The position numbers and the translations under genes are program-made. 48,953 nucleotides of DNA from a virus. Taxonomy: Duplodnaviria > Heunggongvirae > Uroviricota > Caudoviricetes. Shown here piece after piece: positions 22,132-22,819 of the stretch. The first letter of the stretch is position 1. Every line of letters starts with the position of its first letter. The stretch lies in IMG/VR virus record IMGVR_UViG_2579778802_000015. One strand, given 5' to 3'. The notes below the pieces were generated by a model. That model ran no database searches and was not told the origin of the DNA. It saw only the letters and a program-made list of their open reading frames with translations.

Positions 22132-22172
22132 GTAAAATCCCCGTCATATGACAATCAGTAAAGGAAATAAAT

Positions 22173-22373
22173 ATGTCATCGAAAAACCGTACCCGCAGAA
22201 CCACAACCCGCAATATCCGTTTCCCCAATCACATAATTGAACAAATCAACATAGCCCTTGAGCATAAAGGGTCCGGTAACTTTTCAGCGTGGGTTATTGA
22301 AGCCTGCAGGAGAAGGCTGGCAACAGATGCAACGCATCTGCGCCCGGCCAGCATGAAAAATAACGAGAAATGA
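22173..22373 (+). CDS. Ribbon-helix-helix (CopG/Arc-like) DNA-binding protein
   Basis: 66 aa; strong SD AAGGAA; ...IRFPNHIIEQINIALEHKGSGNFSAWVIEACRRRL... RHH pattern; opposite strand to neighbours. Confidence 0.6.
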   Translation: MSSKNRTRRTTTRNIRFPNHIIEQINIALEHKGSGNFSAWVIEACRRRLATDATHLRPASMKNNEK

Positions 22374-22571
22374 ACGTTCGGTTTCTTCCACCATCGCACC
22401 GGACAGGCGACTATGAGGGGACAACGCCGCGCTCCGTTAACGCGGTAAACCCCGGTGTGTATCGTTTTTGATTATCCCCGCACACTCGCGCAGAGGAGTC
22501 TCCCGGTCGGGCTGCGGTCTCTGTTAATGCGGGGATACGGCGACAATACCGCGCATGGATAATAAGGTCGC

Positions 22572-22796
22572 TCAACACACTCGCTGTAATGCAGCGGATA
22601 CCATGCGGCATTTAGCGGTATTCATCGTACACTCAACGGTTAGCTCTTCATTCGTGGCATTCACCTGAAAGGTCCGGGAGTGTAATTGCATACATTTACC
22701 ACTGAACGAACCTTCAACAAGAACACGACCACGCTGCAAAATACGGAACAGAATTGTTCCCTGAAAAGGCTTTACGGTTACCAGTAATTTCTTCAT
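22572..22796 (-). CDS. Hypothetical 74-aa protein downstream of Rz
   Basis: Starts MKKLLVTVKPFQG... with SD GGAGA; Cys-containing; no recognised homolog. Confidence 0.45.
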   Translation of the reverse strand: MKKLLVTVKPFQGTILFRILQRGRVLVEGSFSGKCMQLHSRTFQVNATNEELTVECTMNTAKCRMVSAALQRVC

Positions 22797-22819
22797 GCAT
22801 TCTCCGGATAACAAAAATA

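Follow-up and report, generated by a model that had tools for sequence, protein, structure and literature searches.

A conserved RNA-like element and a YlcI/YnfO-family gene at the lysis/packaging junction of Escherichia coli lambdoid prophages

In a 48,953-nucleotide stretch of viral DNA (IMG/VR record IMGVR_UViG_2579778802_000015, Caudoviricetes; the whole stretch is referred to below as the window), the interval 22132-22819 joins the lysis cassette to the packaging module in an Escherichia coli lambdoid prophage whose packaging genes are of HK97 type (HNH/TerS/TerL). On balance, we favor a description of this junction as three separable parts, namely a small gene of DNA-binding type on the plus strand (22173-22373), which codes for a 66-aa ribbon-helix-helix (RHH)-like protein, an optional late gene for a 74-aa protein (minus strand, 22572-22796) and, between them, a conserved non-coding RNA-like element on the minus strand (22369-22557, with a core at approximately 22376-22556), which was delimited by blastn, a covariance model and alifold. 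The identity of the genes, their order and strand, the conservation, selection and mutual independence of the three parts and a strand-specific covariation in the element were all observed here, and functions are proposed for each part. The two open reading frames (ORFs) are convergent, as the initial annotation had reported and as both the sequence and the ORF list bear out, and a spacer of 198 bp (22374-22571) with a G+C content of around 59% separates their stop codons. That annotation treated the spacer as mere spacing; it turned out to be the most widespread and most conserved part of the locus.

Sensitive blastn searches found the element in 398 phage records, at identities down to approximately 75%. 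As a set of close relatives we used 80 IMG/VR loci with an almost identical RHH-like gene; the 198-bp spacer was present at 93–100% identity in 79 of them (blastn), the remaining contig stopping at the stop codon of that gene. The spacer was kept with or without the 74-aa gene, and also where an insert of about 605 bp, carrying a TonB-fragment gene, parts it from the RHH-like gene. Furthermore, the element lies 55–115 bp upstream of terS in 933W-like Shiga toxin (Stx) phages, without the RHH-like gene or the HNH gene, and was also present in a Salmonella phage and in lambda-like phages. The covariance model located the copy of phage lambda at 46866-47040, between bor and a ybcV-like ORF, and that of E. 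coli K-12 in the borD-ybcV intergenic region of the DLP12 prophage. In the window, it gave a single match (22369-22557, 224.5 bits), on the minus strand only. The element is common to lambdoid phages with three packaging systems and two virion types, Stx phages included.

When 113 unique copies were aligned, the borders of the element were sharp, its two ends being GCGC... and ...GGAAGAAACCGGAC, and several unrelated classes of flanking sequence were found on each side. It lies inside the late transcription unit, between two slots of cargo exchange. Where the lysis cassette ends in a late-sense gene that abuts the element, the latter begins 12–20 nt beyond that gene. The cargo on both sides is often transcribed in the opposite direction, as are bor, ybcV and the RHH-like gene itself. 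The statement of the initial annotation that cargo is usually carried at the end of the late operon beside cos was borne out: this place, where the lysis cassette closes, is a hot spot for cargo, and relatives have bor, Rha/KilA-N regulators, the TonB fragment, ybcV/ybcW or IS1 in it. In the N15-like phage YDC107_1 (1965-2152 and 2915-3103 of the locus) and in one IMG/VR contig (5055-5242 and 6005-6192), two equally oriented copies of the element bracket a cargo gene, as would be expected if cargo were exchanged by recombination within the element.

A protein-coding spacer is excluded by indels of 1 nt and 10 nt among the copies, together with the absence of any ORF of at least 40 aa over the lambda copy. 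With regard to an ORF of 66 aa at 22411-22611 on the minus strand, which matches phrog_6954 'Rz-like spanin' and is so annotated in NC_049920, the frame was not preserved among the copies, and this annotation is probably spurious. A chi site, a REP and an ERIC sequence were likewise ruled out by reading the spacer sequence. So was an intrinsic terminator, since neither strand of the spacer has a hairpin with a U-tract (one T5 run sits 11 nt past a hairpin), and a scan of the ends of the element found neither promoter-like nor intrinsic-terminator-like sites. Rfam returned nothing at gathering score in 22132-22819, with chance-level matches only for the element (E > 4), and the element sequence was not found in text searches of the literature.

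The comparative evidence argues that the element is, with good probability, a functional structured RNA of late sense. For this analysis, 58 representatives with less than 97% identity were aligned with MAFFT, without fitting the alignment to any structure. RNAalifold gave −31.2 kcal/mol for the late sense (the minus strand of the window) as opposed to −8.0 kcal/mol for the reverse complement. Standard pairs filled 97.5% of 1784 cells, compared to 34–51% when the 3′ partners were slid by 1–3 columns, and the covariation score was 0.159 versus 0.03–0.07 in the slid controls. Double-sided changes were present in 11 of the 31 pairs as against 3.8 ± 1.3 in 500 shuffles, none of which reached 11; these sequences are related, which takes weight from the comparison, and the shuffle counts are hence not probabilities. 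One-sided changes were nearly all from U-A to U·G or from C-G to U·G, and among the non-Watson–Crick cells, G·T outnumbered A·C by 204 to 17 (by 146 to 17 when one invariant pair was left out). Since strand-symmetric mutation of a DNA palindrome would give G·T and A·C in equal numbers, this asymmetry points to selection on the late-sense RNA.

The consensus fold, all of it on the minus strand, consists of helix H1 (22543-22549 / 22459-22465), helix H2 (22531-22537 / 22473-22479) with an extension (22526-22529 / 22483-22486), and helices H3 (22509-22511 / 22502-22504), HB (22441-22443 / 22429-22431) and HA (22398-22404 / 22376-22382). Independent compensatory replacements were seen in these helices. 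H2 was found as CCCGC/GCGGG in most copies, as CCCGG/CCGGG in lambda (where its arms are TATTCCCGG / CCGGGAATA) and as CATCG/CAATG in Salmonella S137. Variants of HA were GUCCGGU/ACCGGAC, GUCCUGU/ACAGGAC and UCUCGAU/AUCGAGA, and the HB hairpin existed in four different versions. The initial annotation had called the spacer GC-rich and structured. Its richness in G+C stands, and the comparative analysis in favor of a structure is strong, whereas single-sequence folding of the window's spacer was no better than that of shuffles (z −0.1 and −0.4); this result, together with a C·A mismatch in the late-sense HA of the window copy, speaks against the RNA assignment.

As judged by its profile matches, the plus-strand protein is a member of the named YlcI/YnfO (DUF3950) family. 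Its ORF has a Shine-Dalgarno sequence, AAGGA, 8 nt 5′ of the start, and the protein matched Pfam DUF3950 (PF13132) with an E value of 3e-19 and 69 bits (cut-off, 25), NCBIfam NF041551 (YlcI_YnfO_N) with 35.2 bits (cut-off, 30) and phrog_949 with an E value of 9e-33. In an alignment of 28 homologues, residues 1–50, which form the RHH-like core (22173-22322), were nearly invariant, and the hypervariable C-terminal tails (22323-22370 in the window) were unrelated in both sequence and length. Pairwise Nei-Gojobori estimates of the ratio of nonsynonymous to synonymous substitution rates (dN/dS) over codons 1–50 ranged from 0.03 to 0.1, with dS of approximately 1 or more. Based on such low ratios at synonymous sites near saturation, the ORF appears to be translated into a protein under strong constraint. 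Within the core, the synonymous sites of codons 7–13 (22191-22211, plus strand; ACC CGC AGA ACC ACA ACC CGC, with the direct repeat ACCCGCA(G/A)) were almost invariant, with polymorphism in only one of seven degenerate codons there, as compared to 25 of 40 in the remainder of the core (Fisher p 0.035, on non-independent sequences). These codons possibly form a candidate site at the nucleic-acid level, either an embedded operator or a signal in the RNA.

The sequence of this protein follows an Arc/Mnt-type pattern, with a strand (TRNIRFP), a helix, a turn (KGSGNFS) and a second helix. The AlphaFold monomer comprised two helices, at residues 19–32 and 34–55, with a predicted local distance difference test (pLDDT) score of 70; the strand was not formed, as would be expected of an obligate dimer. 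Other comparisons weigh against a firmer assignment: hhalign put the strand and helix A in register with those of P22 Arc, yet with an E value of 0.022 and a probability of 2%, the best Foldseek matches, ParD2 and Rv0300, were non-significant (E of about 6), and no PDB sequence matched at E values up to 10. A PHROG family of HicB-like antitoxins was matched weakly (E 0.0047), and DUF3950 was the only match for 30 of 34 distant relatives. The RHH protein of the initial annotation is thus upheld in part. Pfam DUF3950, NCBIfam and the sequence pattern make it RHH-like, with no direct match to a named RHH family, and because all tests against named RHH families and solved structures were weak, we regard it as RHH-like and a YlcI/YnfO member, not as a proven RHH protein. 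The searched literature held no functional study of YlcI or YnfO, just incidental mutation tables.

The RHH-like gene was found in 155 records of the phage collection. In all loci examined it ran against Rz, and across three packaging types no other gene ever stood between it and cos or the packaging genes. In particular, phage lambda (J02459) harbors an unannotated 64-aa homologue on the complement of 48109-48303, 199 bp from its right cohesive end, with 87% identity to the window protein in residues 1–52. The layout in DLP12 (rzpD, borD, ybcV, ybcW, ylcI, nohD) is as in lambda. Homology between lambda and the window opens exactly at the ATG of the RHH-like gene and closes near codon 50; upstream of the ATG there is cosQ-proximal sequence in lambda versus the 5′ end of the HNH gene in the window. 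Because the homology begins exactly at the ATG, neither a promoter nor an operator appears to travel with the gene. Similarly, simple scans of the window, lambda and DLP12 found no conserved promoter-like site upstream of it, a result which tells against our reading of this gene; the sole promoter-like match in its sense (9/12) lies inside the HNH gene, at 22043-22071. A wide taxonomic spread of the gene, to which some thirty hits in unrelated taxa seemed to point in a scan with one genome per species, was rejected, these hits being contamination with lambda DNA or with a 3.6-kb lambda control amplicon. The contaminant contigs were of about 3.5 kb or 48.4 kb, for example in Cohnella, Kitasatospora, a 3566-bp Arcanobacterium 'plasmid', Pseudomonas and several metagenome-assembled genomes.

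Relatives of the RHH-like gene were also found in satellites. A PICI/HES-like satellite of E. coli (CP027459.1, 3715563-3723925) encodes an integrase, a D5_N primase, DUF4222 and two DUF3950 genes (3590-3772 and 4001-4363 of the CP027459.1 stretch), one of which (120 aa) is fused to an N-terminal segment of Terminase_2. Both sit in the regulatory zone, divergent from the replication genes, and similar satellites with DUF3950 paralogues were present in three further loci. The CP027459.1 satellite adjoins a 61-aa TerS fragment and the HNH gene, the YlcI/YnfO gene and the RNA element of a window-like prophage, an arrangement which suggests that it integrated in or next to terS.

The 74-aa ORF begins with an ATG preceded by GGAG, and the mechanical ORF list extends its start to a TTG at 22814. 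Its product had no Pfam, NCBIfam or PADLOC match, and the sole family match was phrog_2571, to which no function is assigned there. At useful divergence, its dN/dS was 0.32–0.5, with an excess of third-position changes, and on such sequence grounds it was confirmed that the ORF evolves as coding sequence; close-range dN/dS values of about 1, obtained from very few substitutions among near-identical copies, count against this. AlphaFold returned a confident model (pLDDT 90), in which a small all-beta sandwich is predicted. The gene always follows Rz on the same strand, and in Stx2_EH1846 its ATG overlaps the Rz stop codon (an ATGA start/stop overlap), an arrangement by which we take it to be translationally coupled to Rz and a member of the late operon. 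It was found in 28 phage records, occurs also in prophages with Nu1/GpA terminases and has a counterpart in the N15-like phage YDC107_1, where a 198-aa protein in the corresponding place includes a domain of 33% identity. One database protein has a DUF1737 N-terminus fused to the 74-aa protein, and DUF1737 also starts the NanS-p-like esterase encoded at 25261-27264 on the minus strand of the window. This fusion is probably a recombinant or an assembly artefact, and may explain the length of 291 positions of phrog_2571.

RHH proteins are often autoregulators of toxin–antitoxin or partition-like modules, and the initial annotation had cast the RHH gene of the window in this role. The two proteins would then form one cargo module of toxin–antitoxin or partition type, with the RHH protein autoregulating from its own upstream region, a reading with which the weak match to the HicB-like antitoxin PHROG and the two best Foldseek matches, both RHH antitoxins, agree. 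Nevertheless, the genes are convergent, not co-transcribed, the sequence upstream of the RHH-like gene is unrelated between lambda and the window, with no promoter or operator traveling along, and the 74-aa gene goes with Rz in its translation. Moreover, the latter is absent from about half of the loci with a near-identical RHH-like gene, anything from around 200 bp to over 2.5 kb separates the RHH stop codon from Rz in the 80 IMG/VR loci, and the RHH-like gene of lambda and DLP12 is accompanied by bor, ybcV and ybcW in place of the 74-aa gene. With regard to a type II toxin–antitoxin pair, there was no co-oriented neighbor, the neighbors vary, and neither protein had a PADLOC match; with regard to a ParG/omega partition system, neither a ParA-type ATPase nor a centromere repeat array was present in 21400-23400. 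Since the RHH-like gene and the 74-aa gene occur independently, with no toxin, ParA or co-oriented partner, we reject this module as very improbable. A link of YlcI/YnfO to packaging has more to commend it and is still unlikely in our estimation. Here, a cos-proximal protein made in the lysogen would act on cos or on the small terminase (TerS), and might shield the prophage cos, keep out superinfecting phages that are related, or work either against or for satellites that hijack cos. The gene's invariable place as the last one before cos, HNH or terS in three packaging types is consistent with such a role, as are the DUF3950 paralogues of PICI/HES-like satellites, one of them fused to Terminase_2 and one satellite lying by a split prophage terS, and there is a precedent in TerI, a small lysogen protein encoded on the opposite strand that binds TerS (10.1101/2025.02.27.640495). 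However, the RHH-like protein shows no homology to TerI, nor to Rpp of Gram-negative PICIs, which was considered as a relative and ruled out as a winged helix-turn-helix protein (PMC6739421). The position may simply be a tolerated insertion site, the location of the satellite DUF3950 genes would suit a repressor equally well, and no repeat is common to the RHH and cos regions of lambda and the window.

For the element, a function at the DNA level has to be weighed in the same manner, be it as a recombination linker, as a binding site for a protein (possibly the RHH operator) or as a terminator for the opposed cargo. Its sharp borders, the differing cargo on both sides and the duplicated copies around cargo in some loci would fit such a function, and so would a perfect 10-bp inverted repeat (TATCCCCGCA/TGCGGGGATA), GTAT-N7-GTAT direct repeats and its position adjoining the RHH-like gene in the window and in many relatives. 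A DNA site would, however, be strand-neutral, which contrasts with the excess of G·T over A·C at paired positions (204 versus 17) and with alifold energies of −31 versus −8 kcal/mol between the strands, and compensatory double changes preserve the helices. In addition, no hairpin on either strand is followed by a U-tract, and 933W-like phages have the element without the RHH-like gene; we therefore consider a DNA-level role improbable. It is somewhat less probable again that the element yields a trans-acting small RNA (sRNA), processed from the late transcript or made from a promoter of its own and aimed at host or phage mRNAs. The loop and linker sequences GGAAGAAAC and AUAAUCAAAAACGAU are invariant at places that would be free to vary if the element had a structural role alone, sRNAs abound in lambdoid prophages (PMC4104026; 10.64898/2026.05.13.724894), and STnc100, isrK and C4 occur elsewhere in the window. 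Against this, the ends of the element lack promoter-like and intrinsic-terminator-like sites, its 3′ flank is variable, and it matched neither AsxR, AgvB nor Esr41, nor any other Rfam family. The prophage sRNAs already described also map elsewhere, the anti-sRNAs AsxR and AgvB downstream of PR′ and the Pas sRNAs by esterase or holin genes or in the structural operon.

The reading that we prefer for the element is that of a cis-acting RNA. Some 185 nt in length, it would be transcribed within the Q-antiterminated late mRNA and would fold into a long interrupted hairpin (H1 and H2, with a small hairpin at the apex), after which two more hairpins come. H1 and H2 would together form an interrupted duplex of around 18 bp, of the kind to which RNase III or 3′ exonucleases respond. 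Tentatively, and at less than even odds, we regard as its likeliest role that of a boundary for processing or stability, dividing the lysis message from the packaging/head message, or that of a buffer for the late message against convergent transcription of opposed cargo. The RHH-like protein, for its part, would be made from the prophage and not from the late transcript, as is lambda bor, an expression mode which is suggested by the parallel between the two genes in their opposed orientation next to cos. Its Arc/Mnt-like core of about 50 residues may act as a small dimeric DNA-binding regulator and, because the N-terminal strand is invariant while the neighbors change, the DNA target could be one that recurs in many lambdoid phages or that the host provides. 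The optional beta-sandwich protein of 74 aa, translated from the late operon after Rz/Rz1, would be the product of a late-expressed accessory (moron-like) gene. A more speculative combination, about which we are rather doubtful, is that the element represents an undescribed RNA family which controls the processing or expression of the lysis/packaging message or is the source of a regulatory or anti-defence RNA, with the YlcI/YnfO RHH-like protein as a lysogen-made factor acting on packaging or on cos-hijacking satellites.

Catalogue entries existed for both proteins, under YlcI/YnfO family in one case and 'hypothetical protein' in the other. The pairing noticed in the initial annotation is an ordinary observation, and its interpretation as a module is wrong. 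What is new is that phage lambda holds an unannotated, strongly constrained RHH-like gene 199 bp from cos, and that a supposedly empty spacer is a conserved RNA-like element at the very place of cargo-gene exchange. Should the RNA prove functional, the late operon of the best-studied temperate phages would gain a further level of regulation, and the annotation of cargo (moron) slots in E. coli prophages a fixed landmark. Prophages of this kind are present in about one third of complete E. coli genomes: a 751-bp core of the region matched 1923 of 5426, with a median of two copies per genome, and RefSeq names the proteins there 'YlcI/YnfO family protein', 'hypothetical protein', 'HNH endonuclease' and 'lysis protein'. 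Most of the 418 phage records that a 1.6-kb region matched are from lambdoid phages of E. coli, Stx-converting ones among them.

The late operon of the window runs from right to left on the minus strand, and the RHH-like gene is the sole opposing gene at this point. Family scans confirmed the placement between the spanins and the packaging module that had been proposed for the gene pair. On one side, the lysis cassette ends with the i-spanin gene Rz (22820-23287, minus strand; Pfam Phage_lysis, E 2e-50; phrog_13), within which the o-spanin gene Rz1 is nested as an ORF with a lipobox (22882-23067, minus strand), and the 74-aa gene follows directly. On the other side, the HK97-type packaging module, also on the minus strand, opens with the HNH endonuclease gene (21766-22131; Pfam HNH, E 5e-7; phrog_589) and continues with TerS (20912-21475) and TerL (19254-20915). 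The start codons of the HNH and RHH-like genes are divergent and 41 bp apart, a spacing that is fixed in around 75 related loci. Between the HNH stop and the TerS start (21546-21674), the window has GTTAACAT(T/G)T, or its complement ATGTTAAC, five to six times over, including perfect 12-nt inverted arms (21546-21557 / 21567-21578); these repeats are candidate TerS-binding (cosB-like) sites of the cos region. Elsewhere in the window, Rfam identified, at gathering score, two copies of the STnc100 sRNA on the minus strand (27466-27674 and 27950-28141), both just downstream of the NanS-p-like esterase gene, and an adjacent pair of isrK and C4 antisense RNA, also on the minus strand (31941-32025 and 32051-32128).

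Among known systems, the closest are E. coli K-12 YlcI (DLP12) and YnfO (Qin), which belong to the same family and likewise stand beside a terminase small-subunit gene, nohD, opposed to the late genes; they differ in their C-terminal tail and in having Nu1 as a partner instead of the HK97-type HNH/TerS of the window. TerI of the Listeria TERi system is, like the RHH-like protein, a small protein encoded on the opposite strand, made in lysogens in that case and binding TerS (10.1101/2025.02.27.640495). The likeness is one of gene layout and of a possible link to packaging, as TerI is non-homologous and lies in the early module. As for the element, the lambda sib RNase III hairpin and HK022 put would be comparable as structured cis-acting RNAs of long phage transcripts that work in the sense strand only, albeit with no sequence or Rfam relation to it and at other sites than the lysis/packaging junction of the late operon.

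The RHH repressors Arc and Mnt of P22, from the immI region in the late operon, are small RHH-type proteins of a lambdoid late region, to which the RHH-like protein may correspond. The strand and helix A of Arc align in register with residues 12–33 of the window protein, in whose sequence a G-x-S/N turn can be read; there is, in contrast, no adjacent ant gene and no conserved operator here, and the similarity stays below family membership, at the 2% probability given above. Finally, lambda bor is a moron expressed in the lysogen from the slot between Rz and cos, and the RHH-like gene shares with it this genomic slot and the opposed orientation, bor itself occupying the neighboring cargo slot in lambda, DLP12, AU5Stx1 and Perceval. 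Expression of bor is regulated by PhoP. Unlike bor, which has a PhoP-box promoter of its own in the lambda flank, the RHH-like gene moves without a promoter and is far more conserved than a typical moron.

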